Below, piece after piece: positions 34,345 through 58,870 of a stretch of 64,000 nucleotides of DNA (position 1 is the first letter of the stretch; each line of letters begins with the position of its first letter). The notes under the pieces are model-generated. The model saw only the letters and a program-made list of their open reading frames with translations. It ran no database searches and was not told where the DNA came from. Source of the stretch: Balanoglossus misakiensis (Eukaryota; Animalia; Hemichordata); assembly GCA_040954595.2 (NCBI GenBank), contig CM082580.2, positions 2,284,783-2,348,782 of the forward strand, in the 5' to 3' direction. A program made the position numbers and the translations under genes.

Positions 34345-37300
34345 CTGTAATGGAAATGGAGAAAGTACCTTATATTTTCTGTAAAATAGACATTTAATTG
34401 GCAAGCCGTCCTGCATCAATTATTAATTCAGTACATGCACTGAAGCGCCCTCACAGCTGGGTGTGTTGTGTGGTCAAATCAGAGTACTTTCTGCAATTTC
34501 AAGACAGATCTTACGTGCCATTGGAGAGCTCCACTGCCTGGTCATTCATACTGTTTTCATTCATTCATTGCGGCATCAATATATTTTATCTATTCTAGCC
34601 GAGGAGCTTGGCACCTGTTGAAATGAACTCATCTGCTGTGGGCCAGTTTATTGGTGGCAGTTGAGCAGAGGAGAGCACCTTCTTTCCCGGCACGCCACCA
34701 AGTAAAGTTCCACGCCGCCCACCACAGATGCCAGCATTCATTCATGCGAGTGAGTGTAATTGCAAATTTGCCTATTCTAGATCTGTAATGGAAATGGAGA
34801 AAGTACCTTATATTTTCTGTAAAATAGACATTTAATTGGCAAGCCGTCCTGCATCAATTATTAATTCAGTACATGCACTGAAGCGCCCTCACAGCTGGGT
34901 GTGTTGTGTGGTCAAATCAGAGTACTTTCTGCAATTTCAAGACAGATCTTACGTGCCATTGGAGAGCTCCACTGCCTGGTCATTCATACTGTTTTCATTC
35001 ATTCATTGCGGCATCAATATATTTTATCTATTCTAGCCGAGGAGCTTGGCACCTGTTGAAATGAACTCATCTGCTGTGGGCCAGTTTATTGGTGGCAGTT
35101 GAGCAGAGGAGAGCACCTTCTTTCCCGGCACGCCACCAAGTAAAGTTCCACGCCGCCCACCACAGATGCCAGCATTCATTCATGCGAGTGAGTGTAATTG
35201 CAAATTTGCCTATTCTAGAATTCTTACGTGCCATTGGAGAGCTCCACTGCCTGGTCATTCATACTGTTTTCATTCATTCATTGCGGCATCAATATATTTT
35301 ATCTATTCTAGCCGAGGAGCTTGGCACCTGTTGAAATGAACTCATCTGCTGTGGGCCAGTTTATTGGTGGCAGTTGAGCAGAGGAGAGCACCTTCTTTCC
35401 CGGCACGCCACCAAGTAAAGTTCCACGCCGCCCACCACAGATGCCAGCATTCATTCATGCGAGTGAGTGTAATTGCAAATTTGCCTATTCTAGATCTGTA
35501 ATGGAAATGGAGAACGTACCTTATATTTTCTGTAAAATAGACATTTAATTGGCAAGCCGTCCTGCATCAATTATTAATTCAGTACATGCACTGAAGCGCC
35601 CTCACAGCTGGGTGTGTTGTGTGGTCAAATCAGAGTACTTTCTGCAATTTCAAGACAGATCTTACGTGCCATTGGAGAGCTCCACTGCCTGGTCATTCAT
35701 ACTGTTTTCATTCATTCATTGCGGCATCAATATATTTTATCTATTCTAGCCGAGGAGCTTGGCACCTGTTGAAATGAACTCATCTGCTGTGGGCCAGTTT
35801 ATTGGTGGCAGTTGAGCAGAGGAGAGCACCTTCTTTCCCGGCACGCCACCAAGTAAAGTTCCACGCCGCCCACCACAGATGCCAGCATTTATTCATGCGA
35901 GTGAGTGTAATTGCAAATTTGCCTATTCTAGAATTCTTACGTGCCATTGGAGAGCTCCACTGCCTGGTCATTCATACTGTTTTCATTCATTCATTGCGGC
36001 ATCAATATATTTTATCTATTCTAGCCGAGGAGCTTGGCACCTGTTGAAATGAACTCATCTGCTGTGGGCCAGTTTATTGGTGGTAGTTGAGCAGAGGAGA
36101 GCACCTTCTTTCCCGGCACGCCACCAAGTAAAGTTCCACGCCGCCCACCACAGATGCCAGCATTTATTCATGCGAGTGAGTGTAATTGCAAATTTGCCTA
36201 TTCTAGAATTCTTACGTGCCATTGGAGAGCTCCACTGCCTGGTCATTCATACTGTTTTCATTCATTCATTGCGGCATCAATATATTTTATCTATTCTAGC
36301 CGAGGAGCTTGGCACCTGTTGAAATGAACTCATCTGCTGTGGGCCAGTTTATTGGTGGCAGTTGAGCAGAGGAGAGCACCTTCTTTCCCGGCACGCCACC
36401 AAGTAAAGTTCCACGCCGCCCACCACAGATGCCAGCATTCATTCATGCGAGTGAGTGTAATTGCAAATTTGCCTATTCTAGATCTGTAATGGAAATGGAG
36501 AAAGTACCTTATATTTTCTGTAAAATAGACATTTAATTGGCAAGCCGTCCTGCATCAATTATTAATTCAGTACATGCACTGAAGCGCCCTCACAGCTGGG
36601 TGTGTTGTGTGGTCAAATCAGAGTACTTTCTGCAATTTCAAGACAGATCTTACGTGCCATTGGAGAGCTCCACTGCCTGGTCATTCATACTGTTTTCATT
36701 CATTCATTGCGGCATCAATATATTTTATCTATTCTAGCCGAGGAGCTTGGCACCTGTTGAAATGAACTCATCTGCTGTGGGCCAGTTTATTGGTGGCAGT
36801 TGAGCAGAGGAGAGCACCTTCTTTCCCGGCACGCCACCAAGTAAAGTTCCACGCCGCCCACCACAGATGCCAGCATTTATTCATGCGAGTGAGTGTAATT
36901 GCAAATTTGCCTATTCTAGAATTCTTACGTGCCATTGGAGAGCTCCACTGCCTGGTCATTCATACTGTTTTCATTCATTCATTGCGGCATCAATATATTT
37001 TATCTATTCTAGCCGAGGAGCTTGGCACCTGTTGAAATGAACTCATCTGCTGTGGGCCAGTTTATTGGTGGTAGTTGAGCAGAGGAGAGCACCTTCTTTC
37101 CCGGCACGCCACCAAGTAAAGTTCCACGCCGCCCACCACAGATGCCAGCATTTATTCATGCGAGTGAGTGTAATTGCAAATTTGCCTATTCTAGATCTGT
37201 AATGGAAATGGAGAACGTACCTTATATTTTCTGTAAAATAGACATTTAATTGGCAAGCCGTCCTGCATCAATTATTAATTCAGTACATGCACTGAAGCGC

Positions 37301-40300
37301 CCTCACAGCTGGGTGTGTTGTGTGGTCAAATCAGAGTACTTTCTGCAATTTCAAGACAGATCTTACGTGCCATTGGAGAGCTCCACTGCCTGGTCATTCA
37401 TACTGTTTTCATTCATTCATTGCGGCATCAATATATTTTATCTATTCTAGCCGAGGAGCTTGGCACCTGTTGAAATGAACTCATCTGCTGTGGGCCAGTT
37501 TATTGGTGGCAGTTGAGCAGAGGAGAGCACCTTCTTTCCCGGCACGCCACCAAGTAAAGTTCCACGCCGCCCACCACAGATGCCAGCATTTATTCATGCG
37601 AGTGAGTGTAATTGCAAATTTGCCTATTCTAGAATTCTTACGTGCCATTGGAGAGCTCCACTGCCTGGTCATTCATACTGTTTTCATTCATTCATTGCGG
37701 CATCAATATATTTTATCTATTCTAGCCGAGGAGCTTGGCACCTGTTGAAATGAACTCATCTGCTGTGGGCCAGTTTATTGGTGGTAGTTGAGCAGAGGAG
37801 AGCACCTTCTTTCCCGGCACGCCACCAAGTAAAGTTCCACGCCGCCCACCACAGATGCCAGCATTTATTCATGCGAGTGAGTGTAATTGCAAATTTGCCT
37901 ATTCTAGAATTCTTACGTGCCATTGGAGAGCTCCACTGCCTGGTCATTCATACTGTTTTCATTCATTCATTGCGGCATCAATATATTTTATCTATTCTAG
38001 CCGAGGAGCTTGGCACCTGTTGAAATGAACTCATCTGCTGTGGGCCAGTTTATTGGTGGCAGTTGAGCAGAGGAGAGCACCTTCTTTCCCGGCACGCCAC
38101 CAAGTAAAGTTCCACGCCGCCCACCACAGATGCCAGCATTCATTCATGCGAGTGAGTGTAATTGCAAATTTGCCTATTCTAGATCTGTAATGGAAATGGA
38201 GAAAGTACCTTATATTTTCTGTAAAATAGACATTTAATTGGCAAGCCGTCCTGCATCAATTATTAATTCAGTACATGCACTGAAGCGCCCTCACAGCTGG
38301 GTGTGTTGTGTGGTCAAATCAGAGTACTTTCTGCAATTTCAAGACAGATCTTACGTGCCATTGGAGAGCTCCACTGCCTGGTCATTCATACTGTTTTCAT
38401 TCATTCATTGCGGCATCAATATATTTTATCTATTCTAGCCGAGGAGCTTGGCACCTGTTGAAATGAACTCATCTGCTGTGGGCCAGTTTATTGGTGGCAG
38501 TTGAGCAGAGGAGAGCACCTTCTTTCCCGGCACGCCACCAAGTAAAGTTCCACGCCGCCCACCACAGATGCCAGCATTTATTCATGCGAGTGAGTGTAAT
38601 TGCAAATTTGCCTATTCTAGAATTCTTACGTGCCATTGGAGAGCTCCACTGCCTGGTCATTCATACTGTTTTCATTCATTCATTGCGGCATCAATATATT
38701 TTATCTATTCTAGCCGAGGAGCTTGGCACCTGTTGAAATGAACTCATCTGCTGTGGGCCAGTTTATTGGTGGTAGTTGAGCAGAGGAGAGCACCTTCTTT
38801 CCCGGCACGCCACCAAGTAAAGTTCCACGCCGCCCACCACAGATGCCAGCATTTATTCATGCGAGTGAGTGTAATTGCAAATTTGCCTATTCTAGAATTC
38901 TTACGTGCCATTGGAGAGCTCCACTGCCTGGTCATTCATACTGTTTTCATTCATTCATTGCGGCATCAATATATTTTATCTATTCTAGCCGAGGAGCTTG
39001 GCACCTGTTGAAATGAACTCATCTGCTGTGGGCCAGTTTATTGGTGGCAGTTGAGCAGAGGAGAGCACCTTCTTTCCCGGCACGCCACCAAGTAAAGTTC
39101 CATGCCGCCCACCACAGATGCCAGCATTCATTCATGCGAGTGAGTGTAATTGCAAATTTGCCTATTCTAGATCTGTAATGGAAATGGAGAAAGTACCTTA
39201 TATTTTCTGTAAAATAGACATTTAATTGGCAAGCCGTCCTGCATCAATTATTAATTCAGTACATGCACTGAAGCGCCCTCACAGCTGGGTGTGTTGTGTG
39301 GTCAAATCAGAGTACTTTCTGCAATTTCAAGACAGATCTTACGTGCCATTGGAGAGCTCCACTGCCTGGTCATTCATACTGTTTTCATTCATTCATTGCG
39401 GCATCAATATATTTTATCTATTCTAGCCGAGGAGCTTGGCACCTGTTGAAATGAACTCATCTGCTGTGGGCCAGTTTATTGGTGGCAGTTGAGCAGAGGA
39501 GAGCACCTTCTTTCCCGGCACGCCACCAAGTAAAGTTCCACGCCGCCCACCACAGATGCCAGCATTCATTCATGCGAGTGAGTGTAATTGCAAATTTGCC
39601 TATTCTAGAATTCTTACGTGCCATTGGAGAGCTCCACTGCCTGGTCATTCATACTGTTTTCATTCATTCATTGCGGCATCAATATATTTTATCTATTCTA
39701 GCCGAGGAGCTTGGCACCTGTTGAAATGAACTCATCTGCTGTGGGCCAGTTTATTGGTGGCAGTTGAGCAGAGGAGAGCACCTTCTTTCCCGGCACGCCA
39801 CCAAGTAAAGTTCCACGCCGCCCACCACAGATGCCAGCATTCATTCATGCGAGTGAGTGTAATTGCAAATTTGCCTATTCTAGATCTGTAATGGAAATGG
39901 AGAAAGTACCTTATATTTTCTGTAAAATAGACATTTAATTGGCAAGCCGTCCTGCATCAATTATTAATTCAGTACATGCACTGAAGCGCCCTCACAGCTG
40001 GGTGTGTTGTGTGGTCAAATCAGAGTACTTTCTGCAATTTCAAGACAGATCTTACGTGCCATTGGAGAGCTCCACTGCCTGGTCATTCATACTGTTTTCA
40101 TTCATTCATTGCGGCATCAATATATTTTATCTATTCTAGCCGAGGAGCTTGGCACCTGTTGAAATGAACTCATCTGCTGTGGGCCAGTTTATTGGTGGCA
40201 GTTGAGCAGAGGAGAGCACCTTCTTTCCCGGCACGCCACCAAGTAAAGTTCAACGCCGCCCACCACAGATGCCAGCATTTATTCATGCGAGTGAGTGTAA

Positions 40301-42772
40301 TTGCAAATTTGCCTATTCTAGAATTCTTACGTGCCATTGGAGAGCTCCACTGCCTGGTCATTCATACTGTTTTCATTCATTCATTGCGGCATCAATATAT
40401 TTTATCTATTCTAGCCGAGGAGCTTGGCACCTGTTGAAATGAACTCATCTGCTGTGGGCCAGTTTATTGGTGGTAGTTGAGCAGAGGAGAGCACCTTCTT
40501 TCCCGGCACGCCACCAAGTAAAGTTCCACGCCGCCCACCACAGATGCCAGCATTTATTCATGCGAGTGAGTGTAATTGCAAATTTGCCTATTCTAGAATT
40601 CTTACGTGCCATTGGAGAGCTCCACTGCCTGGTCATTCATACTGTTTTCATTCATTCATTGCGGCATCAATATATTTTATCTATTCTAGCCGAGGAGCTT
40701 GGCACCTGTTGAAATGAACTCATCTGCTGTGGGCCAGTTTATTGGTGGCAGTTGAGCAGAGGAGAGCACCTTCTTTCCCGGCACGCCACCAAGTAAAGTT
40801 CCACGCCGCCCACCACAGATGCCAGCATTCATTCATGCGAGTGAGTGTAATTGCAAATTTGCCTATTCTAGAATACTTACGTGCCATTGGAGAGCTCCAC
40901 TGCCTGGTCATTCATACTGTTTTCATTCATTCATTGCGGCATCAATATATTTTATCTATTCTAGCCGAGGAGCTTGGCACCTGTTGAAATGAACTCATCT
41001 GCTGTGGGCCAGTTTATTGGTGGCAGTTGAGCAGAGGAGAGCACCTTCTTTCCCGGCACGCCACCAAGTAAAGTTCCACGCCGCCCACCACAGATGCCAG
41101 CATTCATTCATGCGAGTGAGTGTAATTGCAAATTTGCCTATTCTAGAATTCTTACGTGCCATTGGAGAGCTCCACTGCCTGGTCATTCATACTGTTTTCA
41201 TTCATTCATTGCGGCATCAATATATTTTATCTATTCTAGCCGAGGAGCTTGGCACCTGTTGAAATGAACTCATCTGCTGTGGGCCAGTTTATTGGTGGCA
41301 GTTGAGCAGAGGAGAGCACCTTCTTTCCCGGCACGCCACCAAGTAAAGTTCCACGCCGCCCACCACAGATGCCAGCATTCATTCATGCGAGTGAGTGTAA
41401 TTGCAAATTTGCCTATTCTAGATCTGTAATGGAAATGGAGAAAGTACCTTATATTTTCTGTAAAATAGACATTTAATTGGCAAGCCGTCCTGCATCAATT
41501 ATTAATTCAGTACATGCACTGAAGCGCCCTCACAGCTGGGTGTGTTGTGTGGTCAAATCAGAGTACTTTCTGCAATTTCAAGACAGATCTTACGTGCCAT
41601 TGGAGAGCTCCACTGCCTGGTCATTCATACTGTTTTCATTCATTCATTGCGGCATCAATATATTTTATCTATTCTAGCCGAGGAGCTTGGCACCTGTTGA
41701 AATGAACTCATCTGCTGTGGGCCAGTTTATTGGTGGCAGTTGAGCAGAGGAGAGCACCTTCTTTCCCGGCGCGCCACCAAGTAAAGTTCCACGCCGCCCA
41801 CCACAGATGCCAGCATTCATTCATGCGAGTGAGTGTAATTGCAAATTTGCCTATTCTAGATCTGTAATGGAAATGGAGAAAGTACCTTATATTTTCTGTA
41901 AAATAGACATTTAATTGGCAAGCCGTCCTGCATCAATTATTAATTCAGTACATGCACTGAAGCGCCCTCACGGCTGGGTGTGTTGTGTGGTCAAATCAGA
42001 GTACTTTCTGCAATTTCAAGACAGATCTTACGTGCCATTGGAGAGCTCCACTGCCTGGTCATTCATACTGTTTTCATTCATTCATTGCGGCATCAATATA
42101 TTTTATCTATTCTAGCCGAGGAGCTTGGCACCTGTTGAAATGAACTCATCTGCTGTGGGCCAGTTTATTGGTGGCAGTTGAGCAGAGGAGAGCACCTTCT
42201 TTCCCGGCACGCCACCAAGTAAAGTTCCACGCCGCCCACCACAGATGCCAGCATTTATTCATGCCAGTGAGTGTAATTGCAAATTTGCCTATTCTAGAAT
42301 TCTTACGTGCCATTGGAGAGCTCCATTGCCTGGTCATTCATACTGTTTTCATTCATTCATTGCGGCATCAATATATTTTATCTATTCTAGCCGAGGAGCT
42401 TGGCACCTGTTGAAATGAACTCATCTGCTGTGGGCCAGTTTATTGGTGGCAGTTGAGCAGAGGAGAGCACCTTCTTTCCCGGCACGACACCAAGTAAAGT
42501 TCCACGCCGCCCACCACAGATGCCAGCATTCATTCATGCGAGTGAGTGTAATTGCAAATTTGCCTATTCTTACGTGCCATTGGAGAGCTCCATTGCCTGG
42601 TCATTCATACTGTTTTCATTCATTCATTGCGGCATCAATATATTTTATCTATTCTAGCCGAAGAGCTTGGCACCTGTTGAAATGAACTCATCTGCTGTGG
42701 GCCAGTTTATTGGTGGCAGTTGAGCAGAGGAGAGCACCTTCTTTTCCGGCACGCCACCAAGTAAAGTTCCAC
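34345..42772 (+). repeat. Left terminal array: 10 x 163-bp A module interspersed with ~25 x 275-bp B unit
   Basis: A-to-A spacings are 438, 713, 988, 713, 988, 988, 713, 1538 and 438, i.e. 163+275n with n=1,2,3,2,3,3,2,5,1. Units are nearly identical. Confidence 0.95.
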
Positions 42773-44554
42773 GTGCATTCCTGGCCCTGGTTTTATTTAT
42801 GTTTACAGACAATATTGCACTTTTGTACAAGTATTTTAATCAACTATAAATTTTGAATGTGTCATTTACCTGAACCGGTCATGTTGACCAGAATGATACA
42901 TTTCTGCCTTCACTCACCCTATAAATATGTGATTGAGACATAGGTCATTTGCATAAGCTAACATACCAGAAAGTAAGCATATCTGATGTTTTCCCTGTGT
43001 CACTGCCATCAAAGTAAAAATTAGACGTTGTGTAGAGCAAACTCCAATTTTTTGTTCTCAATAAACATGGATGAATTACATAGAATGTGTTTGTTGTTTA
43101 CAGTCTTTAGATTATGCACTTTACAAAACGTTTCTGAGAAACAAGTGACTAACTAGTTTCTTTCCACTGTGGCCAACGTGGTTCACTGTTTGTGTCAGAA
43201 TCTCTCTGTTTTGCAAGGATTTTGAAATCTTAGTGGTGACATGCATAGTGAAAATCAGCTACTTTCAAATGTCCGTCATGTTCATGCTGTAATTGAATTT
43301 TCAAAGCTGGGCTGGCGTGTTTTTTCTTATTTACATAAGTATCACACTTTATACATGTATCTTCATGGGGTTTTCTGAGTCCCGTATTTAGGTCCTCTCT
43401 CACAATTTTACGAAATATCGTATAACTGACAGTTGTTCTTCCCAGAAGAGATTGGTTGGTTATGAACTTTCGGTGTAACTGCGATATACTGTGGTCCGGC
43501 GCCAGGTACGGTTTAATTCGAGGATTCCTGCAGTTGTGAGATTCTACAATTCTGTGCCTGCGTACGTGTTCAGTGATATCAGTCAGCAAATTTGGATTGA
43601 GTTTCCGACGATGCCTTTTGTGTCGGCCCCTTGCATCCGGCATCAGACCAGTAATGTTCCATGTGCATTCCTGGCCCTGGTTTTATTTATGTTTACAGAC
43701 AATATTGCATTTTTGTACAAGTATTTTAATCAACTATAAATTTTGAATGTGTCATTTACCTGAACCGGTCATGTTGACCAGAATGATACATTTCTGCCTT
43801 CACTCACCCTATAAATATGTGATTGAGACATAGGTCATTTGCATAAGCTAACATACCAGAAAGTAAGCATATCTGTTGTTTTCCCTGTGTCACTGCCATC
43901 AAAGTAAAAATTAGACGTTGTGTAGAGCAAACTCCAATTTTTTTGTTCTCAATAAACATGGATGAATTACATAGAATGTGTTTGTTGTTTACAGTCTTTA
44001 AATGACACATTAGATTATGCACTTTACAAAACGTTTCTGAGAAACAAGTGACTAACTAGTTTCTTTCCACTGTGGCCAACGTGGTTCACTGTTTGTGTCA
44101 GAATCTCTCTGTTTTGCAAGGATTTTGAAATCATAGTGGTGACATGCGTAGTGAAAATCAGCTACTTTCAAATGTCCGTCATGTTCATGCTGTAATTGAA
44201 TTTTCAAAGCTGGGCTGGCGTGTTTTTTCTTATTTACATAAGTATCACACTTTATACATGTATCTTCATGGGGTTTTCTGAGTCCCGTATTGAGGTCCTC
44301 TCTCACAATTTTACGAAATATCGTATAACTGACAGTTGTTCTTCCCAGAAGAGATTGGTTGGTTATGAACTCTCGGTGTAACTGCGATATACTGTGGTCC
44401 GGCGCCAGGTACGGTTTAAATCGAGGATTCCTGCAGTAGTGAGATTCTACAATTCTGTGCCTGCGTACGTGTTCAGTGATATCAGTCAGCAAATTTGGAT
44501 TGAGTTTCCGGCGATGCCCTTTGTGTCGGCCCCTTGCATCCGGCATCAGACCAG
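42773..44554. repeat. ~890-bp tandem duplication covering the 3' part and 3' flank of the Sola-like N-half gene
   Basis: GTGCATTCCTGGCCCTGG starts copies at 42773 and 43663. ORF 43230-43643 is a truncated copy of part of 44052-44843. Confidence 0.9.
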
Positions 44555-45281
44555 TTGAACAGTGCATCATTTTGCTTAGAACGGTTCTAGTCCGCCTCTC
44601 ACTAATGCCAAATAATTTCAGGAATGCATTTTTGCAGACAGTAACCGTTTCACCGCCTTCATTCACCAGGTGATAACGAACCGATTTCTTGTGTGACTTC
44701 ATCTGTATATCCATCAGTTTGTAGAGCATCAAGTTCTGTTCATTATACACGCGACCATCAAAATATTTTCTCGTGGTGCCTAAAACATGCGTACTCCCAA
44801 GCTTCCGCAGACAATAAGCGCGTTTCCAGTTCCAGATACCCATGACGCTTTGCGCGAGGTCACGGGGTCAAAAGGTAAAACTTTAGGTCAGCGTAGCAGA
44901 CGACATATTGTAAACAAACGTTGCGAGGCGAATTTTTTTGCGAATCTCAGTGAAACGAACTTTTGAGGTGAGTTTTTACATTGAATAACAAATTTAGTGT
45001 GCCATTCAAGGCATTTCGAGTCGAATCTCGCATTGTCACTCGAATTTTTGGCGACTTTCATAACTTTTTGCCGACGTGTATTTCCTTAGGCCTGAACGGA
45101 AACACCAATACGTACGGCCGTGAATAGCTAGGCACGTAATCGGTTCGTGTGGTGTTATATAGCAGACATGTAATTATGTTGACGACCGACCAATGCAGGC
45201 ATAAAACATTGCATAGACATAGACTATATAGGTATTTCTTTTTTTACCAGATTCTCGTGTGAGTGAATAGGAAGTTTAGGG

Positions 45282-46976
45282 ATGCCCACCTGTTCCTGTG
45301 CAGTGCATGGGTGCACTAATAATACCCATAAAATAAGACAATGGAGGAGGCAGTATTGCCAAATACACCACTGTCAATTCGACACAGGTAGATGTTTTTG
45401 TGACCCACCATTTACGCTATTCCCTTTCCCAAACAAAGAAAGCAATACAGAGGTGTTGAAAGAGTGGATTAGACTGATCAACCTTAAAGATGCTACTACA
45501 GGAAAGATTTGGGAACCAAACACATACAGTCGAGTTTGTTCACAGCACTTTGTTGACAGCAAACCCACCCAAGAAAACCCAAATCCAACTCTACACCTAG
45601 GTTATCCTGTAAAACTAAAGCAAACAAGGCGAAAAATAGAGAGGTCCACGTGTTGTTCCGCAGTTCCAAAGAAAAGGAAAACAGTTGAAAGGCCAGTAGA
45701 GAGAGAACACAATCCAAATTCAAGCAACCCTTCAAGTTCATCTGTTTTGTCCACTGAGGAATCACCAAAAAAAGATGAGAACGCTAGTGAAATATTAGTT
45801 GACTGTGAACACAAAAATGCTGCAGACACTTCATCATCAAGTGGAAATTCTTCACATCTAGATGACCACTCTTACTTTAGATCTTGTGACTGTAGTCAAG
45901 ATTGTAATTGTTTGGGGTGTCATGAAAAAAATGAGACAATCAAGGATTTGCTAAATAAAATTCAAGACCTTGAAGAATTGATTAGAATGAAAAAGTCAGT
46001 TGAGCAAAAAATCAGTGAAAATGGAAAACATATGTTTGAAAAATTATTGAAAGATGATTCGAAATGTAAATTTTACACAGGTCTACCAAGCATTGCTCTT
46101 TTCAATTTAATTTTTGATTACATTGATCCGAAAACCAGGAAAATGAGATATTGGTATGGTGTGAAAAATATTATAAGCACAAAAGTCCCAAGGAAGTTTA
46201 ATAAATCACCCAAAAAGTTTGGTCCCCAAAGAAAACTGGGTGGAAAGGATGAAATGCTTCTTGTCCTTATGAAGTTGAGATTGGGTCTTTTAAATAAAGA
46301 CCTGGCTGATCGTTTCAACATTTCACCTGCACATGCGAGTAGAATTTTCAATACATGGGTCAAAGTTCTCTCTAAAGAGTTGAAACAAATGATACGTTAT
46401 CAACCTAAAGAGTATGTTTTGCCAAACCTTCCAAAGTGTTTTCAGAAACATTTTCCCAGACTCGTCAGCATATTAGATTGCACGGAAATATTTATTGAGA
46501 GGCCTAGGGACTTGAAGCTGCAAGCTCAAACCTGGTCAGATTATAAGAAGCATAACACAGCCAAATTGCTGGTTTCTTGTTCACCAAGGGGGTCAATTAG
46601 TTTTATTTCTGGAGCCTGGGGTGGGAGAACTTCCGATAATTATATTGTGAGGAATTCTGGGTTTTTGGATTTTGTTGAACAAGGCGATCAGCATTTGGCT
46701 GATAAAGGTTTCACATTGAAACAAGATTTTTTGATCAGGGGGGCAAAACTTATAATACCACCTGGGGTAAGGGGGAAAGAACAACAAACTGAAAGTGAGG
46801 TTAAAATGACGAAAAAAATTGCAAATTTGAGAATACACGTGGAAAGGGCTATCAACAGGTTTAAACATTTTAGGATTTTACAAAATACTTACCCAATTTC
46901 TTTGATACCAGTAATAGATGATGTCATCACTGTATGTGCTGCATTATGTAATTTTTTACCACCATTAGTGCGATAA
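45282..46976 (+). CDS. THAP domain + HTH + DDE_Tnp_4 transposase (564 aa, intact)
   Basis: CAVHGC..FPFP..W..RVCSQHF..P.PTL (THAP); KFYTGL; LMKLRLGL..KDLADRFNIS; ILDCTEIFIERP; WGGRTSD; LADKGF; RIHVERAI. Confidence 0.92.
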   Translation: MPTCSCAVHGCTNNTHKIRQWRRQYCQIHHCQFDTGRCFCDPPFTLFPFPNKESNTEVLKEWIRLINLKDATTGKIWEPNTYSRVCSQHFVDSKPTQENPNPTLHLGYPVKLKQTRRKIERSTCCSAVPKKRKTVERPVEREHNPNSSNPSSSSVLSTEESPKKDENASEILVDCEHKNAADTSSSSGNSSHLDDHSYFRSCDCSQDCNCLGCHEKNETIKDLLNKIQDLEELIRMKKSVEQKISENGKHMFEKLLKDDSKCKFYTGLPSIALFNLIFDYIDPKTRKMRYWYGVKNIISTKVPRKFNKSPKKFGPQRKLGGKDEMLLVLMKLRLGLLNKDLADRFNISPAHASRIFNTWVKVLSKELKQMIRYQPKEYVLPNLPKCFQKHFPRLVSILDCTEIFIERPRDLKLQAQTWSDYKKHNTAKLLVSCSPRGSISFISGAWGGRTSDNYIVRNSGFLDFVEQGDQHLADKGFTLKQDFLIRGAKLIIPPGVRGKEQQTESEVKMTKKIANLRIHVERAINRFKHFRILQNTYPISLIPVIDDVITVCAALCNFLPPLVR

Positions 46977-47316
46977 AGTTTTTTTTATATGAAAATAAAA
47001 GATGTACGTTACTGCAGCTCTGGGTTATGTAAGTTATTTCCCCTGTTTAGTTGAAGACTACTCAAAGAAATCCCAGCAGAAGGCGGTCTGCCTATCCATA
47101 CGTTCTCTACACTGGGTTGTTGGGCATATAACTACGAGAAGTATTTCATTCGATATTATGCATATTTTAAGGATGGAGATTAAACATTGTCATTGTGGAA
47201 TGAAAAGTCAAAAACATACTGTCAAATTAACATGATTTTATTAAGTTTTACACACTTAAAATATTAAAATACATAAATGATGTATCATTTTGCAGAGGAA
47301 TCATGGATATATATAA

Positions 47317-50088
47317 TCATAATTCCACAGCAGAGGCTGTCCATTTGCAGGTGTGGGACTTAATTTCATTCAATAAATGGTGATTGTAGAAATATGCCAG
47401 ATTTTTTACAATTTTTTTCCAATAATCATGGTCAAATGTTATCCTTTCTAAGTGGTATCCATGCATAGAATAAACAAAAAAATCACACCACTTTTTTTCA
47501 GCAATTGCCATTTGACCTTGAACCTGGCTATAATATGAAGAAGTATGTTTGAGTTTTGTTACACCATTAGCAGATGTTAGGTAAATTAAATTGGTATGAC
47601 TTGGTACTGAATCTGATACTGATATAGGACATTTGCATTCCAACAGACCAATACCACAACAGTCACATTTGACTATTGCATCAGGGCTTGCTCCCAGAAA
47701 TATATTGTTTTTATCAACAAATAGACCACATTCAAAGAGATGGATATTTTTGTGACCATTTCCTTTCATAATTTTCAAATAGTTACTTTTAGCCACTGAC
47801 TCCATACGTCTCCCAAACTTGAGTGACCCAATGTTTGGATTGGGAGAAACACATCCAAGTAGCCTACAAGATAAGGACTTTGTCTCGATTGATTTTGGAT
47901 TTTCGGCCATCTGAATTGTGTTCACTTTAGTGTACACAGAGTGAAAATTAGATGCAGTTATACGCCCTTTTCTGTTTTCAATCCAAATCTCATTTTCACT
48001 TTGCCCAATTGTACTATTTTCAATAGCTGACACTGTTTCATTACTGTACTTTGGTAAATCACAAATATCAGTAATATCTGAGAAACTTAACAAGTCATGA
48101 AGTGTAGGGGGCAATGGTGCTGGAAAATTACCAACAGATGACTGGCTCAAATTGTCAAAAGAAGTGTCTCTCTCTGTAGATGTTTCAGAAAATATGACAG
48201 AACCTGGAGATACAACTTTAGCATTTTCAAGGAAAGTTTGAAATGTCATCCCCTTGTCTTTATTCCTCTTGTGTGGCACAAACAATGACTTCACAGCAGG
48301 ATTAATGGTGCTTGTGTGATCTGAAAAAATAATATCAAATACATATTCATGTATTGACCAATAATATTAAATGAAGTGGTCAAGTAGCACCAACTCTTGG
48401 ACACAATGTTCTTCAGTTCACTACAAACTAATTTTATATTCCGGCGTTTCATGGGCTTAATCCCACTTCATCAGGTTGAAATTGTATGGAAGCCAAAGTA
48501 TATACCGGTATGTATAGGATACCCCCCCCCCCACCCCACCCCACACACATACATACATACAACACATACAGGAAAGTAAGAACAAGACTTGGTTGCACAG
48601 CATTTCACACCATACTTTTTCTTACATCAGCTGTTCATTAGGTTTTGTAAAGGACTTCAAATTAATTTAGGTGAATATTACATGGTAATATGCCATTGAT
48701 GGCAACAGAGATACTACAGATTGCAATTTAAAGGTATACAATCACCTCCAATTTACATCACTCATGTATGGCTGAAATTGCGTATTAGAGCCTTCTAAAG
48801 AACATATGGTGGCGCTCTTGTTTTCGCGTGTGCCACCTAATGAAAATTTGTGATTGGCTAGATCTCATTTTGCCATGGTAACTATAGCTTATTTTCCATA
48901 GGTGACCGTATACCTTTAATGTTTTCAGAAATTATCTAAATAAGATTGGTGTACCAGATTTATCAGCATGTGGGGATTTCCATTCCATTTCTTTTATTGG
49001 TACTGGTTGAACAAGAAGAGTTTTACCAGATCCTCTCCATGTACAGGGTAGAGATGTCTGTGACTTGACCACATAACCATACTTCCAACAGAAGTCAATT
49101 TTCAAAAGTACTGCTGCCACATGATTGCATGATTTACCATATCTGTACAATACAATACAAAGCAAAGAGAGAGCATTCGTTAAATATTAAACTACTTTGG
49201 TTGGTTAATTTGAGAACTTTGAGCCAAATATGTGGCATAAAGAGAAATATTGAAGACATAATAAAATTATTCAGACTAATATTAACAATATATGAATAAA
49301 AATAAGTTATTGTGCAGTTTTTATACTTGAGTTAGTATAAATTATTTATCAGAGTCACTTAATTTTTATTGAGACTAGTAAGTAGAATTTAAAATGTCAA
49401 AATGCTGATATAACAGCATAGGTCAGTGAAAAAATATAGTTTTTCCCATTAAAAAAACATGTAAAGGTACTCACCCAGCTACACAAGTACAATGTGAACT
49501 TTTAATCACTCCCGTCTCTTTCTCAATAGCAACCCACAGTTCATGGGCACAATCTGCCAGTCTTTGTGATGGTGTACATTTGGATTTCAGGAAACAGTAT
49601 GGACTATCTTCGGAGATGTGGTGGTAATAAACCTCAAAAAGAAACTGTGAGGAGAAATAACTAAATGCCTTGCCCTCTTTGTAATCATTTAACAGCCTTT
49701 TCGATAAATTGGTCTTGCTGATATCAGTCTCATGTTCCTGCAAGTAATTTTGGATATCCGTTATCATAGTTGGGGGCCACATATGCATTGCTGTATTTTC
49801 ATTTTGCCATCCAGACGTCAAAGAGGTGAATGGATCTGGCAAAACACAGCCATCAGAAATGACCAATGCCATTTTATATTCTCTTTGGCGCGTTTCCTCC
49901 TTCTCTATGGCTGTTGTAACCAAAGGTGTCTTGTTTATATGTGCTGCATATGCTAGTGCCACCAACTCTTCTTTTCTCCCAGAAACAGGCAGATCTCTTT
50001 TCTGAAGAAATGCTTTGAGAGCTGGCACCTTCCATAATTTAAATGTGTCATACGTTAGCTCAGCCTCATGAATACTCTGAGATGACAT
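47317..50088 (-). CDS. SAP + SWIM Zn finger + YqaJ (lambda exonuclease-like) accessory protein
   Basis: Exons 50088-49475, 49142-48955 and 48320-47317. WKVPALKAFL..R.LPVSGRKEELV (SAP); CTCVAG-YGKSCNHVAAVL (SWIM); GRITASNF, LGASPD, LECKCP, YYSQVQGQM (YqaJ). Confidence 0.88.
48732..48915. mobile_element. TTAA-flanked MITE (Kolobok-like) in an intron of the YqaJ gene
   Basis: TTAA|AGGTATACAATCACCT...AGGTGACCGTATACCT|TTAA. Confidence 0.7.
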
Positions 50089-51011
50089 TTTTCTACAAGA
50101 GATAAATTAAAAATGTAGTTATAGTCACACTGTCAACAATACCTGGTGTTCATATAGAATATAAAATAAAGAAGCGTTTTTTTTCAAAATAGGTACAATC
50201 ACTCATGATTATCATGAAAATATTAATAAATCAAGCACTACCGCTGTCATTACATTTAAAGTTTCCGGTAGAATAAACGAGCCTTGACCATGATGACCTC
50301 ACGGTTTTGTACTGTAGTCGTGTACGTGCCTAGCTATTCACGGCCGTACGTATTGGTGTTTCCGTTCAGGCCTAAGGAAATACACGTCGGCAAAAAGTTA
50401 TGAAAGTCGCCAAAAATTCGAGTGACAATGCGAGATTCGACTCGAAATGCCTTGAATGGCACACTAAATTTGTTATTCAATGTAAAAACTCACCTCAAAA
50501 GTTCGTTTTCACTGAGATTCGCAAAAAATTCGCCTCGCAACGTTTGTTTACAATATGTCGTCTGCTACGCTGACCTAAAGTTTTACCTTTTGACCCCGTG
50601 ACCTCGCGCAAAGCGTCATGGGTATCTGGAACTGGAAACGCGCTTATTCCCTTGAACGCAGGCGCATTCCAAGGAAAGACTGTCAATATCTTGAAAAGGG
50701 CGATTTTTCCTTGGTTTTTGTCTCGGACACGTCTTTTTAGAATTCCTACGTGGCTTGTTGGCTCGAGCTGACAGTTCGGTTCTGCGTTGCTGCCACACAG
50801 GAATGGGTTCCCACGCATAAGCAACTCCCCGGCAGGCCATGGTCACAGCTGAAGTATTTGTTCAAGTACTGACTGACTAAACGCGGCATGGAACAAACGA
50901 ACGAACGAACGAACGACTTCACGTTCGGAAAAAAAAATCGTTGCGAGCTGTTGGGTGCCTCTATAGTTGTCGGCAACCGTTCTTTTTTATTGCTAACAAT
51001 GCTGTCAGAGC

Positions 51012-52026
51012 ATGGAAGGTGTGGTGGAAAACGAACAGAGGTTTTGTACGACCAACGATTGGATGGTGCTACATATGGACTTCCACAAGTCATTGCCGGT
51101 TCCTAAACTCAGCTCTGAAGACTTTTACTTTAAATCGAAATTGCAAATGAAGCTCCTTGGAATTTACAACGGGACAACGGAAAAGATGCATTGTTATGTA
51201 TGGACAGAGCTCGATAGCAGAAAGTCTCCCGATGAAGTTATTACCTGTCTAAATCACTTTTTTTTATAACTCGGGTGTGACCAGCAGACATGCAGTTATT
51301 TACAGCGACAACTGCCGTGCCGAATTCAAGTGTGGGAAGTTAATGTTTTACTATGACTATCTGTTACGAAAGGGCGTGTTTCGACGAATTGACTATAAAA
51401 CTCTTGTGGCTGGACACACGTACTCCACCTGTGACCGAGTTTTTGCGTCCATTGAAAGACATGCAAGTCGTTTCCAGAGTATAGAGACACCTCACGATTG
51501 GATATCTGTGATTCGAGGATCTTCTCTGAATGGGAACATTGGAGTTACGGAGATGACTCACAGAGACTTTTTCAATTATTCTGATTTCCTGAAAAATGAG
51601 TACGTTGTGCGTTATGCAGATACAAACAATGTAACTTTTTACTACCAAGCCATGCACTATTTTAATTTTGGAGAAGGAGAAAGGCTTGATACCGACGGCA
51701 ACCTCAGAACATTTAGTCATGCAGATAAAGTTTGGGTGAGAACATCTCTAGATCCAAGCGAGACCCCGATTGTAGTTGACTTTAGAAAGAAGAAGCAGAA
51801 CCGGCGTTTACAAGATTGTACGCTGAACAAACTTTATCAGGAACGTCGACCACTGGCGAGCAAAGTTTGGCGGGATCTTCAGAGTTTAGCCAAAAATTAC
51901 CTGTCTCCGGAGGCAATAGAATTTTATAGGAATCTACCGCTTCAGGAGAGTAGTGGCACCTCTGCAGACCCGTACGCCTTTCATGATGATGACGACGACG
52001 ATGATGATGATATGGGCGGTGGTTGA
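51012..52026 (+). CDS. Sola1-like transposase C-terminal catalytic (DDD) half; single +1 frameshift in a T8 run
   Basis: MDFHKSLPVP, FYFKSKL, CYVWTE, IYSDNC, LVAGHTYSTCDRVFASIER, P.DW..VI, K..DL. Removing one T at 51258-51265 fuses ORFs 51012-51269 and 51277-52026. Confidence 0.8.
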
Positions 52027-52430: not shown

Positions 52431-52522
52431 GCGACCCTGGGCTATTGTTCGGAATGCGTCATCGACGAGAGAGTGACTGATAATTCTTCTACCTCGAGTC
52501 AACCATTCTGTATATACTGAAC

Positions 52523-53848
52523 ATGGCTAGCTGGCGCAGGAAGAGACAAGGCAATGTGCGGTCTGTAATCAACGAACGGCACCGCTCAGTTCAGTGTCCC
52601 TTTCTTCAAAAGTGGATCGGTGAGCAATTGGTATTTTCAGGTCGTTCAGAGGATGAAGTCCAGTCCAGTACTGTATTTGAGAGCTACAAATGTTGGGTTG
52701 AAAACTATTCGTCGGCGGACAATCAAGTAATGATTATGGTTACTAAAGCTCGATTTTTCAAGGTGAGAATGATCGCATTTTTCTTTCCCCCCCCCTCCCT
52801 CCCCCAAGGGACTCGTTTTCTGTCTCTTTTAAACCTGTAACTTAACGAAAAGGAAGTTTTTCACATATCTCTTCGTTGACACTATAGCAATTTGGAGCGC
52901 GGATGCTTCAAGAGAATAGCGTTACCAAATCAAAGTCGGCCGGGGTTAATATTTATAGAGGTGTTCGTCTGAAAGCTGGTTCGCGAAGAATCTCAACGGG
53001 GAAACCTGAGCACAGTGTACTTCAGACCAGGGCAAGGGCATTTCTTGATGACGCCAGCGTGACCGTTCCGATCGAGGTAAGAATGGTGTTTTGTTTGGAC
53101 TAGGACAATAGAACGTTGCAATGAGTGTGTCAATGGGTGTCCAAGTGCAAACGTGGTCTGCTTCTGTCCACAAATGCCATTAATTTTTGGCAGGATTTAT
53201 AAAATTGTCAATGACGAATACAAAAATGAAAAACAACAGTTAATAGCAAACTGGTAGGATTGCAAGGGCTTGTAAAACGGTACACACTGTACCAGGAAGT
53301 TTGCAACACTAATGAAGAATGTATATGATATATTTAGGTGAGAACTGTTCGCGATCGCCGGGACGCAGGACGGTGCGCGTTTTCGACGAGGGATATTCAA
53401 GCCTGGGACGTCGTCTGCGAATACCGGGGCACGGTTATTAGCGTTGAAGAAGCTAGTCGGCGTGATGAGCTTTACAGGGCAGAGGGGAAACGACCACGCA
53501 TGTTCCATCTCTACATTGGAAAGAGACACGTTGTGTGAGTGTATCACTTAGTCGAATATATGGTCATATATTGCAAAGCATCTGTCGAAATAGAAAACGT
53601 AATATTGTCTATATTTTCCTCATTAACGCAGCATTGACGGATACGATGTCCCAGCCGGTGAAGAAAATTTAGCAGGCCTAATAAATCACAGTCAGCAGAA
53701 CGCCAACTTGGTACCGGTTCGGATCGGAGAGCGCCTGGTTTTCTTTGCAACCAGGAATCTTTGTCAGGGAGTAGAGCTTTTGTATGATTACGGTGACGGG
53801 GGTGAAGAGGATTTCTTCAGTGGTTCTCAAACTTTTCCTGAAAATTAA
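52523..53848 (+). CDS. Winged-helix-like domain fused to a SET domain (SET8/PR-Set7-like lysine methyltransferase)
   Basis: In-frame exons 52523-52762, 52888-53076, 53338-53534 and 53632-53848. SET motifs GRCAFSTRDI, VCEYRG, IDG, LINHS..NAN, FATRNL..G.ELLYDYG. N-terminal W...VFESYK.W...F.K....IYRGVRLK resembles RFX/D5-type winged helix. Confidence 0.78.
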
Positions 53849-54752
53849 GGCATTAACACATCAACGCTTCGGGGTGTCGTAACGGCGGCAAGGCGGGGGG
53901 GGGGGGGACGTGAAAATGTTTGTATCAGGAACAAAATTCCCGTGCAAATCACCTTGATCCGGGTGGGTGGACTATTCGCGACAAATGTTGAAATCATACA
54001 AAGCATTTTACTTAATTAACCCATTTTTTTTTCATTTATTTGTTTACAGTTTACAACGTCATAGAGAAGTTGAACTAGAGACTGGATCAGCGTGGGTGAC
54101 ACTATAGTACACCAATGTTTTCTTCCGTTTGATTCAATTGTAATTTAAAACTGAGATTGCCTAACGCTTTCCCAGATTTTTTTAACCACTGAGAAACTGT
54201 GGGTTTTTTTCTGGGTTTTGGTGCGAGGTGATCTCAGTCAGTGGTGTTAATTTAATTAATCATTTTATTTTCCTATTTACGTCGACTGAAATGTATTTTG
54301 ATAGGTGATAGTCATACCATAAAAAAATCTTACGGCGCGACTGCCAAAATGTACATTTATTTGTCCGTTCCAAGTTATTTTGTGTATGTGTGATGGGTGC
54401 CGGTGACTGTGCAGGGTTGATTTCCCTAGAGCGACTGTTATATTCGTTTTCCAACGATGATGAATTTACATGTTATTTGCTTGGCATTTTGACGCAGAGG
54501 CACTTCTGAAAACACAAACCTATTAATTATGCCACGGGTGTAAATTTATCACATTAAAAGAGGCTTTAGACGTTTGCCGCGAGCTCCTGGTGGGCAGAAT
54601 CTTGTCAGCCCAAATTTGACTATAAGTACATAGCCAATGATATGACGCTCTCCCACATCCTTCGCCGCGCCTTTTCGCTGATTTACAGCATCTTGCGTAA
54701 ACACTGTCATTTGATCTTGCTTGGCAGAAGTCAACTTGCTCTATACTACATT

Positions 54753-55118
54753 ATGGCGGCCAAGCTCAACTGCATATCAGATAATGCCAAGGAGCGTTTG
54801 AGAGGCATCCTCGCCAGAAGGAGTCGCGTTTCCGGTGACTGTGTGCTCTGGACGGGTGCAGCTTGTCGAAACGGCTATGGCTCTATTACGTTCAAAGATG
54901 AGAACACTCTAACCGCCTATGTCCATCACATTGCACTCCTAATTAACGGAGTGCAATTGGTGGGCAGGCGGTTAGAGTGTTCTCATCTTTGCAACGAAAA
55001 GCTATGCATCCGCCCAGAGCACATTGTCCAGGAAACGCGACTCCTAAACATTTCACGAAAGACGTGCTTTAAATCCCCAAAAGGGGAGTGTCACCACGAT
55101 CCCAGGTGCCTAAGGTGA
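54753..55118 (+). CDS. His-Me finger (His-Cys box, I-PpoI-like zinc-binding loop) endonuclease
   Basis: CVLWTG..RNGYG.I..YVHH.A..LECSHLCNEKLCIRPEHI..E..N..R..C....CHHDPRC. Confidence 0.85.
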   Translation: MAAKLNCISDNAKERLRGILARRSRVSGDCVLWTGAACRNGYGSITFKDENTLTAYVHHIALLINGVQLVGRRLECSHLCNEKLCIRPEHIVQETRLLNISRKTCFKSPKGECHHDPRCLR

Positions 55119-55959
55119 GTAATCCTCTTCTCATTTGATATGTATTGTGTGACCCTGCAGTTGAAACGCTTTCATCAATAATTTGCGGCGCGTGGGTAAT
55201 CTCGGTGTTATTGACAATGCGAGATTTTATACATAAGGAACAATCTAGATTTATTTTAGAAGACACTGTTCTTTTAAAACAGCTAGCATAATACAGCTAA
55301 ATTTCGGAATTTCCGGACAATTTTCGGAATTCCTTTTAAATTTGACAAATTTTTCATCAGATATAAGTGTTACTATTTATTGGACATGTTTTTATCATTG
55401 TTTACTTTTTAAGGTCATTCTCACCCCCCCCCCCAAAAAAAAAGCCGCTTTAGGCTTCATGTTCAGTAAACAATCTGGAAAGTTCAGCTGAATTTTACAC
55501 TGATCACATATTTTTGGGAAGGTCTGGCGCAAAATAAAGGATGACCAATGTAAATCTAATGTCACATTTGTAAACCTCTAAGTATTGTACACCCATTCTA
55601 TTAAGTATATGCAAATGGTACGGATAATTTTTTCGGAATGTGGAATTCCGAAATTAGTTCGGAACGTGTTAGCTGTGAAGAGATCACCACTGAGGGTTGG
55701 AAGGCCTTGCCAGAAATTAACGCGTAAAGTACGCCCTCACAGGCCATGTAAACAAGGTCAAATAAGACCGTCTGGCAAACGAATGACGCGCCATTTGAGC
55801 CGAGCTGAGTTGGTCTGAGTTGCGTATCACACAGACTTAGGCTGAATGTCAGTGGAGTAACCAGTCCGTTTTAGATTTACCAATGATGTGAATTTAATTT
55901 CTTCACCCAGAAAAACAGAACACAACTTGTCTGCAACATGATGCTGACTGTGACACATG

Positions 55960-56830
55960 ACAGAGAAGTGGATCCGCGTTGTCAACACAGATGCCAGCAT
56001 TCAAAAGGGGAGTGCCACCTGCTGAAATCAACTCATCTGCTGTGGGCCTGTTTATCTGTGGCAACTGTTCAGAGGAGACAACGTTTATTCCGTGCAAGCC
56101 AACACCGATGCAAGCATTCATGTGAGTGAGTATCAGTACTGACCTTGTATTTGCTGAATAATTCATAATGCCTATTTTAGAATTCTTAGAGGCATTTGGA
56201 GAGTTCATTGCCTGGACAACCAAACTACACCCCTTAACAGCTGAAACAAAATGCGTATTGTGTTCATTCATTCATTGCATCAATATATATAGGCAACATG
56301 AGTATCAAGTAGCACTATTTGTTTACGATTGTATTCATGAAAACTTCCCACTAACAATTCCACAGTACTTCGTTAATATTGAACACATTTATCCAACAAG
56401 GTCAAAAGAAAAAGGGAATCTTCTGGTTCCAAAATACGCCACAAATGTGGGTCAACATACAGTGAAATATTATGGTGCTCAAATATGCAACATATCAAAT
56501 CTGTCTCATCAAAGTCATGCTTTAAAAAAGAATTGAAAAAGTATTATTTATCCATTTGACTGCTGTATTTTCAGAAGGAAAACAAACTGAATTTGGTTTT
56601 TCATGTACAAACTCGCATTAGTATCGCCCTGTATTAAATTCTGCAATTGTATGTTGTGTGGGGGACTGGACTCGACTAGTGTTACACAATTTTCTAGTCC
56701 CCTCCCATCTTATACCTATTGTATTCGTCATTCCTTTGTTAATTTTGTTTATTTGTGTCAGAATAAGGGAAATAAACATATTATTATTATTATTATTATA
56801 TTTTGTGTATTCCTAGCACTGGCCAATAAG
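55960..56830 (+). repeat. Diverged B-like unit interrupted by a LINE 3' fragment (~56290-56798)
   Basis: Shares CACAGATGCCAGCATTC, CTCATCTGCTGTGGGCC, TAGAATTCTT and TTCATTCATTCATTGC with B. The insert reads ..HIYPTRSK...YYGAQICN.. and ends AATAAA + (ATT)n. Confidence 0.65.
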
Positions 56831-58870
56831 CTTGGCACCTGTTGAAATGAACTCATCTGCTGTGGGCCAGTTTATTGGTGGCAGTTGAGCAGAGGAGAGC
56901 ACCTTCTTTCCCGGCACGCCACCAAGTAAAGTTCCACGCCGCCCACCACAGATGCCAGCATTCATTCATGCGAGTGAGTGTAATTGCAAATTTGCCTATT
57001 CTAGAATTCTTACGTGCCATTGGAGAGCTCCACTGCCTGGTCATTCATACTGTTTTCATTCATTCATTGCGGCATCAATATATTTTATCTATTCTAGCCG
57101 AGGAGCTTGGCACCTGTTGAAATGAACTCATCTGCTGTGGGCCAGTTTATTGGTGGCAGTTGAGCAGAGGAGAGCACCTTCTTTCCCGGCACGCCACCAA
57201 GTAAAGTTCCACGCCGCCCACCACAGATGCCAGCATTCATTCATGCGAGTGAGTGTAATTGCAAATTTGCCTATTCTAGATCTGTAATGGAAATGGAGAA
57301 AGTACCTTATATTTTCTGTAAAATAGACATTTAATTGGCAAGCCGTCCTGCATCAATTATTAATTCAGTACATGCACTGAAGCGCCCTCACAGCTGGGTG
57401 TGTTGTGTGGTCAAATCAGAGTACTTTCTGCAATTTCAAGACAGATCTTACGTGCCATTGGAGAGCTCCACTGCCTGGTCATTCATACTGTTTTCATTCA
57501 TTCATTGCGGCATCAATATATTTTATCTATTCTAGCCGAGGAGCTTGGCACCTGTTGAAATGAACTCATCTGCTGTGGGCCAGTTTATTGGTGGCAGTTG
57601 AGCAGAGGAGAGCACCTTCTTTCCCGGCACGCCACCAAGTAAAGTTCCATGCCGCCCACCACAGATGCCAGCATTCATTCATGCGAGTGAGTGTAATTGC
57701 AAATTTGCCTATTCTAGAATTCTTACGTGCCATTGGAGAGCTCCACTGCCTGGTCATTCATACTGTTTTCATTCATTCATTGCGGCATCAATATATTTTA
57801 TCTATTCTAGCCGAGGAGCTTGGCACCTGTTGAAATGAACTCATCTGCTGTGGGCCAGTTTATTGGTGGCAGTTGAGCAGAGGAGAGCACCTTCTTTCCC
57901 GGCACGCCACCAAGTAAAGTTCCACGCCGCCCACCACAGATGCCAGCATTCATTCATGCGAGTGAGTGTAATTGCAAATTTGCCTATTCTAGATCTGTAA
58001 TGGAAATGGAGAAAGTACCTTATATTTTCTGTAAAATAGACATTTAATTGGCAAGCCGTCCTGCATCAATTATTAATTCAGTACATGCACTGAAGCGCCC
58101 TCACAGCTGGGTGTGTTGTGTGGTCAAATCAGAGTACTTTCTGCAATTTCAAGACAGATCTTACGTGCCATTGGAGAGCTCCACTGCCTGGTCATTCATA
58201 CTGTTTTCATTCATTCATTGCGGCATCAATATATTTTATCTATTCTAGCCGAGGAGCTTGGCACCTGTTGAAATGAACTCATCTGCTGTGGGCCAGTTTA
58301 TTGGTGGCAGTTGAGCAGAGGAGAGCACCTTCTTTCCCGGCACGCCACCAAGTAAAGTTCCATGCCGCCCACCACAGATGCCAGCATTCATTCATGCGAG
58401 TGAGTGTAATTGCAAATTTGCCTATTCTAGAATTCTTACGTGCCATTGGAGAGCTCCACTGCCTGGTCATTCATACTGTTTTCATTCATTCATTGCGGCA
58501 TCAATATATTTTATCTATTCTAGCCGAGGAGCTTGGCACCTGTTGAAATGAACTCATCTGCTGTGGGCCAGTTTATTGGTGGCAGTTGAGCAGAGGAGAG
58601 CACCTTCTTTCCCGGCACGCCACCAAGTAAAGTTCCACGCCGCCCACCACAGATGCCAGCATTCATTCATGCGAGTGAGTGTAATTGCAAATTTGCCTAT
58701 TCTAGATCTGTAATGGAAATGGAGAAAGTACCTTATATTTTCTGTAAAATAGACATTTAATTGGCAAGCCGTCCTGCATCAATTATTAATTCAGTACATG
58801 CACTGAAGCGCCCTCACAGCTGGGTGTGTTGTGTGGTCAAATCAGAGTACTTTCTGCAATTTCAAGACAG
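56829..58870 (+). repeat. Right terminal array (B-B-A-B-B-A-B-B-A), same orientation as the left array
   Basis: A modules at 57282, 57995 and 58708 (713-bp spacing). The last A ends at 58870, abutting (AT)n. Confidence 0.95.

Follow-up and report, generated by a model that had tools for sequence, protein, structure and literature searches.

Our analysis of a 64,000-nt stretch of DNA from Balanoglossus misakiensis (GCA_040954595.2, CM082580.2:2,284,783-2,348,782, forward strand; this whole stretch is hereafter called the window) leads us to favor, on balance, the view that a 24.5-kb unit at 34345..58870 is a composite DNA transposon that moves by cut and paste and belongs to a split-Sola lineage; it would work much as KolobokP elements do without being one of them. 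The unit is bounded by a 163-bp module, A, and begins and ends precisely on it: its outer limits are the first base of one copy (34345) and the last base of another in the same orientation (58870), as a preliminary description of this DNA had stated. That description also correctly placed ATAT at both outer junctions within AT runs of the host, though these runs are short (10 nt on the left, 34335..34344; 18 nt on the right, 58871..58888), and its notion of a composite-like unit whose end modules resemble long terminal repeats, each with its own short inverted repeat, is borne out. Its epithet "giant" is less apt, since the large size is owed to arrays of repeats and to a nested ISL2EU transposon; 18.7 kb remain once the latter is subtracted, of which 10.5 kb are array. 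We consider it probable that the A-bounded unit moves as one whole. The favored view is supported by the exact coincidence of the unit's ends with those of A, which bears a terminal inverted repeat, by an array form equal to that of KolobokP multimers, and by the age of sequence of the second array module, B, in the interior, where a copy of 67-79% identity grades into the right array.

Module A is present in 13 copies (10 in the left array and 3 in the right), all on one strand and 99.4-100% identical. The first (34345..34507, +) and the last (58708..58870, +; its final base is the end of the unit) act as terminal direct repeats with the ends CTGT..ACAG, and the termini of A form a 24-nt imperfect inverted repeat in which 19 of 24 positions match, a score equalled by 1 of 200,000 shuffles. 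Most of the arrays, however, consists of B, which has a 271-bp core with AT on either side and 30 starts, the first copy being at 34508..34782 (+); the overall layout is A-(B)n-A. The left array (34345..42773, +) holds 10 A and 25 B, the final B being truncated at about position 207, and the right array (56797..58870, +) holds a partial B, 5 full B, and 3 A, terminating on the last base of A. Variants of B recur within the arrays as ordered multi-unit blocks, which is the pattern that unequal crossing-over would give. At its edge, the left array joins a duplicated piece of gene via microhomology, while on the other side an older, diverged B-like unit (55983..56288, +; 67-79% identity) is split by an insertion (56289..56800, +; an (ATT)n tail and no Pfam match) and grades into the right array. 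Its motif suggests that this insertion is likely the 3' fragment of a long interspersed nuclear element (LINE). Because the interior opens with B positions 1-207 and closes with about 95-271, an overlap of ~110 bp, B resembles what a deletion within the interior would leave, and is likely to be a miniature internal unit. The idea that B is a ribozyme satellite was discarded, as it belongs to no RNA family and folds no better than its shuffles (z -0.8).

The joints between modules differ in kind. All 24 inner ends of A are flanked by AGAT or ATCT, so that whereas ATAT at the single host site matches the 4-bp word AWWT, the inner flanks of A have just AT in common; as there is one such site and it lies inside an AT run, a 2-bp and a 4-bp duplication are indistinguishable here. 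Among the 18 B-B joints, 16 read AATT (TAG-AATT-CTT), one reads AATA, one carries a short deletion, and none is precise.

Contigs from three sequencing runs of one sample, possibly the same source as the window, provide a further view of the unit. In X1, interior contigs have a depth of 693-770 against 170 for the interior of the ISL2EU element (~4x, one sample), and each 1.1-1.6 kb of interior contig shows 3-4 letter differences from the window in addition to gaps; together, these figures hint at a young multi-copy family, with no copy number derivable from a single sample. The B-to-interior depth in X1 is roughly 25-40:1, and the ratio at the locus is about 31:1. Joints in X2 that link interior positions to A ends were set aside, their sides being just 20-24 letters long. 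Contigs also link 56288 back to ~56016 via 27-34 other letters, indicating that old-type B-like units stand in tandem elsewhere.

We also show that the transposase, described earlier as one Sola1 gene, is encoded by two divergent genes. The preliminary list of interior genes thus stands in part: SET, His-Me (PF05551), and DUF7869 domains are all found, but the transposase comprises two genes on opposite strands, the first of which is interrupted by the ISL2EU element. The N-terminal half consists of a 5' part with the start codon (50648..50840, -) and a 3' part with ESHY and DTCxxC motifs (44052..44813, -), which together give 318 amino acids when the gene is followed leftward through the insertion (50840 to 44052); a tandem duplicate of the 3' part lies at 42745..43652 (-; ~890 bp, 96.7% identical to 43636-44555). 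The catalytic half (51012..52026, +) has a DUF7869, RNase H-like domain with three conserved Asp, and in the window copy a T run near 51258 shifts the frame by 1 nt, a change that is lacking in X1 and X2 contigs. Between the divergent start codons lies a gap of 171 bp (50841..51011), from its position likely a two-way promoter.

We searched 1.84 billion proteins with a HMMER profile for the catalytic half; of the 6,453 hits, the best 150 supply the figures that follow. The top 12 matches are 187-376 residues long, and none of the 12 matches the N-half; among matches of at least 550 residues, 47 of 50 have the N-half upstream of the catalytic domain. With both parts united in a single polypeptide in these long relatives, the two genes in the window are collinear halves of an ordinary transposase, cut between the helix that follows DTCxxC and the first catalytic strand. 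A quick tree was built from the 60 best-scoring near-full-domain rows of 182 proteins (the 150 hits and 32 cluster members, near-duplicates included) plus 4 added rows. It places the window protein in one branch of 35 stand-alone rows (SH-aLRT, the Shimodaira-Hasegawa-like approximate likelihood ratio test, 97), with a sister group (P0024, P0040, and P0028) that has the catalytic domain and no N-half, 2 of the 3 showing a weak Pfam match to PHD. Given that the closest catalytic relatives are stand-alone and form one clade, the split is not a matter of local decay, and we are highly confident that the split transposase/SET lineage is a conserved one. The sole named relative among the matches listed is Saccoglossus kowalevskii XP_002739486 (48%; 306 or 344 residues). 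Two clusters of relatives, of 13 and 20 members, lie mostly on separate large contigs, a spread that transposon families would show. We take the FDLQ and GHT..ECD motifs of the fused relatives to be those of Sola1, a label that we apply tentatively.

A low-confidence model of the catalytic half (predicted local distance difference test score, pLDDT, 44.6) is closest to Mos1 and to integrase cores (Z 9.6, root-mean-square deviation 4.7 over 153 residues), while structure matches to a model of the N-half (pLDDT 48) comprise generic helices only. In a word-based search with the N-half, none of 87 candidates scored, and a similar search for extended versions of the catalytic half, in which 0 of 3,494 scored, was overturned by the full HMMER search. 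In viral contigs, none of 14 stretches examined for the catalytic half proved to be a relative, nor did any of 8 for the nuclease or of 2 for the SET protein.

The third gene of the cluster (52523..53848, +) is intact, encodes 280 amino acids, and comprises a D5-like winged helix and a SETD8-like SET domain (PF00856) in four exons (52523-52762, 52888-53076, 53338-53534, and 53632-53848). The likeness of exon 1 to winged helices of the D5 type has an Atlas score of 0.97, which we treat as a lead. A virus or Polinton origin, prompted by this helix, was rejected, as the interior frames scanned include no capsid, polymerase, or helicase. Among 142 pattern matches in metagenomes, we found seven related loci of 1.3-10.6 kb each that carry the catalytic half, and in 3 of the 7 the SET gene is linked to it. 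In L005, the catalytic half faces the winged-helix/SET gene and the N-half; in L003, the catalytic half and the N-half face each other; and in L001 and L002, the catalytic half faces the SET gene. The SET protein of L001 matches SETD8/KMT5A structures, and introns 2 and 3 of the window gene have the identical place and phase in L005. Because L005 and L003, like the window, have the halves of the transposase on opposite strands, these are not exons of one gene, and cis-splicing is excluded. L001-L003 and L005-L007 overlap at 76-95% identity and so count as about one lineage, with L004 as a second. Further observations at these loci are a spliced, intron-less winged-helix/SET gene facing the catalytic-half gene at 1402-2217 of L001; a 626-residue LINE-type reverse transcriptase-like frame adjoining a truncated N-half at 2585-4462 of L003; and, ~2 kb upstream of the N-half gene of L005, a 146-bp palindrome (9888-10033, z -14) that encodes no His-Me protein.

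Another gene of the interior encodes a His-Me finger (His-Cys box) nuclease of 121 amino acids (54753..55118, +; PF05551, E 1e-12) that retains the catalytic S-H, H, E, and N motif residues; it matches I-PpoI (E 0.002) and, by eye, is like KolobokP nucleases. Inside its coding sequence lies an imperfect palindrome of 227 bp (54819..55045; z -16 as DNA and -13 as RNA), such that the conserved catalytic segment, read as its reverse complement, gives the variable segment at the N terminus. When 107 tiles of the interior were folded, the mean was -24 kcal/mol, whereas the two over the palindrome reached -74 and -60. Antisense frames across the gene are closed. Selection for a damping RNA hairpin could explain the palindrome, as could perfection of a quasi-palindrome by template switching.

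The first reading of the interior was incomplete in that it missed an ISL2EU transposon inside the N-half of the transposase (44816..50645; 5,830 bp, with inverted ends of ~323 bp and an AT duplication at 44814-44815 and 50646-50647, site A|AT|T). Its transposase (45282..46976, +) is an open frame with THAP, HTH_Tnp_4, and DDE_Tnp_4 domains. The second gene region (47317..50106, -) has a SAP frame (49471-50106) and a YqaJ nuclease frame (47317-48366), likely to be exons of one gene with predicted splicing. One contig each in X1 and X2 is without the element, jumping exactly 5,832 bases with 255 letters on either side; it is a later passenger in the unit. It is young, and a 3,291-base contig is identical to it (0 differences). 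Han et al. (2015; PMC4482050) report for ISL2EU a THAP-HTH-DDE transposase, a YqaJ gene, and an AT duplication at A|AT|T, with inverted repeats of 6-259 bp that usually, though not strictly, start with GG. The nested element shares the genes, the target, and the duplication, and has an empty site in contigs; however, its ~323-bp inverted repeats exceed this range and start with AA. Within the second gene region, at ~48727-48919, there is a short repeat of very high copy number (in X1, the bin depth is 76,728) whose ends form a 20-nt inverted repeat, likely a miniature inverted-repeat transposable element (MITE).

How might such a unit move? In the mechanism that we favor, both transposase halves would be expressed from the 171-bp gap and then reassemble, and the reassembled enzyme would likely bind the 24-bp inverted repeats of A and carry the whole stretch delimited by the outermost A ends into AT-centered sites. 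A single A may also be excised by cuts at both its ends. In that case, AT-[A]-AT would become A-AT-T, each flank base beside the element being swapped for its complement via a flank hairpin, a footprint that has been described for Ac/Ds (PMC5873905). The AATT joints of B fit complement-of-flank footprints in 16 of 18 cases; nevertheless, we regard hairpin excision of single A modules as doubtful. Unequal crossing-over would rebuild and expand the arrays, perhaps triggered by the nuclease, by analogy with the proposal for KolobokP. More speculatively, the winged helix may bring the SET domain to the DNA of the element, where it would counter silencing or tune the transposase, and the hairpin in the nuclease message may damp a harmful enzyme.

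Several observations weigh against this picture. Within the 64-kb window, A does not occur outside the arrays, either as a solo copy or as part of a second A-bounded unit, and what ties its inverted repeat to the split transposase is co-location. Nor was an empty host site seen, although no search aimed at it was made. The gene order in the related loci is unlike that in the window, and none of the seven has His-Me, A, or B, although they span 1.3-10.6 kb with no element end identified. Flank hairpins are known from hAT, Transib, and MULE enzymes, which have an insertion domain, whereas the catalytic model here (pLDDT 44.6), closest to Mos1 and integrase cores, is without such a domain. AATT is itself an AWWT word and is also found at the joint of the old B-like unit, so the AATT joints may all descend from one event or be ancestral. 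As regards the split, 3 rows labelled stand-alone fall among fused proteins in the quick tree, likely as gene-call fragments, and the majority of the stand-alone relatives are known solely as automated gene predictions that come with no surrounding sequence.

The absence of A, B, and His-Me from the related loci would also fit an alternative in which A, a small non-autonomous element mobilized by a different transposase, came to be embedded in a satellite of B; the split-Sola/SET cluster would then be another element, with ends of its own, lodged inside one B, and the outline of the unit would be incidental. It gains from the contigs in which B-like units are in tandem elsewhere (joints from 56288 to 56016) and from the array edges, which overlap by ~110 bp in B as though one B had been interrupted. 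On the other hand, the outer ends fall exactly on A and within an AT run on both sides, an old B-like unit sits inside the interior, and no other inverted-repeat ends surround the gene cluster; the B-to-interior depth (25-40:1 in X1), which is near the ratio at the locus (~31:1), is a weak hint that B mostly moves together with the interior. We consider this alternative unlikely. A further scenario, to which we give still less credence, retains the ends and the nuclease of a KolobokP element and has its transposase replaced by the split-Sola/SET module, the unit being moved by a Kolobok transposase elsewhere. The KolobokP-like nuclease (by eye), the identical array form, and the lack of His-Me beside relatives of the Sola module in the stretches seen are all in line with it; in the interior, however, we found no remnant of a Kolobok transposase, and A starts with CT and finishes with AG instead of RR..YY and is 163 bp long instead of about 450 or 660.

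Finally, the second array, or the join between array and interior, could be an assembly error, since no contig or read spans the unit and the arrays are >99% identical. We find this very improbable, given that the right array grades from old unit through insertion to modern B, the left edge is a microhomology join to a duplicated gene piece, array variants come in ordered blocks, and the AT run continues beyond both outer ends. Returning to the composite transposon that we favor, we tentatively raise the broader possibility of a widespread, undescribed Sola-like lineage in animals that combines a two-gene transposase with a DNA-targeted SETD8-like enzyme, one branch of which would have come independently to the KolobokP design, with flank-hairpin excision in spite of a mariner-like core and with control of the nuclease by its self-complementary coding sequence.

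The flanks of the unit contain other features. A 353-bp palindromic, MITE-like element lies at 19685-20037, with a partial second copy at 15386-15539. There are frames for fibrinogen-C (15929-16621) and sulfotransferase (27227-28371), fragments of DDE_Tnp_4 (22210-22713) and of a reverse transcriptase (60642-61556), and small tandem repeats with 88-bp and 32-bp units (63569-63839, 24739-24820, and 25355-25434).

If the unit jumps whole, a composite design described so far for one unrelated transposon lineage would have arisen a second time. Terminal direct repeats and a His-Me nuclease on an unrelated transposase would, if true, indicate a repeatable strategy and allow the model put forward for KolobokP, unequal crossing-over induced by the nuclease, to be tested independently. 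A naturally split eukaryotic DD(E/D) transposase, in which end recognition stands apart from catalysis, is of mechanistic and engineering interest, and such a split would hide these elements from annotation based on single open reading frames (ORFs). The conserved winged-helix/SETD8-like passenger points to a transposon that writes its own chromatin mark, the arrays illustrate how a transposon end may seed satellite DNA, and a catalytic gene in the form of a 227-bp palindrome is unexplained and directly testable.

A literature search that did not extend to Repbase, Dfam, or Bao et al. (2009) found no published description of Sola elements that have terminal direct repeats or a split transposase or that carry SET or His-Me, and a prior Repbase entry for this combination is possible. 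A 4-bp AWWT target duplication is a hallmark of Sola1 (PMC3845634). Our unit is similar to Sola elements in that its two halves are collinear with single-chain DUF7869 proteins of 600-800 residues, and in its AT-rich target and the short terminal inverted repeats of its outer A ends, which match at 19 of 24 nt; cargo-bearing Sola2 elements (with Fanzor) are also known. It differs in having a pair of oppositely oriented genes where Sola1 has a single ORF (of 630 residues in a published example), arrays of terminal direct repeats, and SET and His-Me cargo. Its catalytic motifs (MDFHKSL, SDNC, and AGHTYSTCD) do not match by eye the DFxENY, SDG, and ATSHGKxxCD of Sola2, as given in the published alignment (PMC3627910 supplement).

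The comparison with KolobokP, which had been suggested at the outset along with the view that the transposase is not of the Kolobok type, has proved apt: terminal direct repeats, arrays, and a His-Me nuclease are shared, and the transposase is a DUF7869 protein. However, the array architecture is not undescribed, as had been thought, since multimers of the form LTDR-(INT)n-LTDR, with long terminal direct repeats (LTDR) around internal units (INT), have been published for KolobokP (Kojima and Bao 2022; PMC9587614). Their origin by nuclease-induced unequal crossing-over is a published, untested model, and KolobokP shows no strong target preference, at odds with the TTAA given in the preliminary description. 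As there, the interior of our unit lies between terminal direct repeats that have their own short inverted repeats, a small I-PpoI-like His-Me nuclease stands beside an internal transposase, terminal repeats are shared or missing in multimers, and there are signs of excision of solo terminal repeats; A-(B)n-A would correspond to LTDR-(INT)n-LTDR if B counts as a miniature INT. The Kolobok DDD/E transposase has a C/DxxH motif and zinc finger between the second and third catalytic residues, whereas the transposase here is DUF7869/Sola-like, is split in two, and has its last two conserved Asp ~42 residues apart with no such insert. The termini (CT..AG versus RR..YY) and the length of the repeat (163 bp versus about 450 or 660) also differ, and joints here gain complementary bases (AATT), while those of KolobokP keep one duplication or lose bases. 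Moreover, our unit adds a winged-helix/SET gene, arrays of a 275-bp miniature unit, and a palindromic nuclease gene. A SET-domain lysine methyltransferase gene has its own precedent among DNA transposons in HarbingerS (Kojima and Jurka 2014, as referenced in PMC12730594); there it accompanies a Harbinger transposase, whereas here SET is fused to a D5-like winged helix and travels with the halves of a split Sola-like enzyme.

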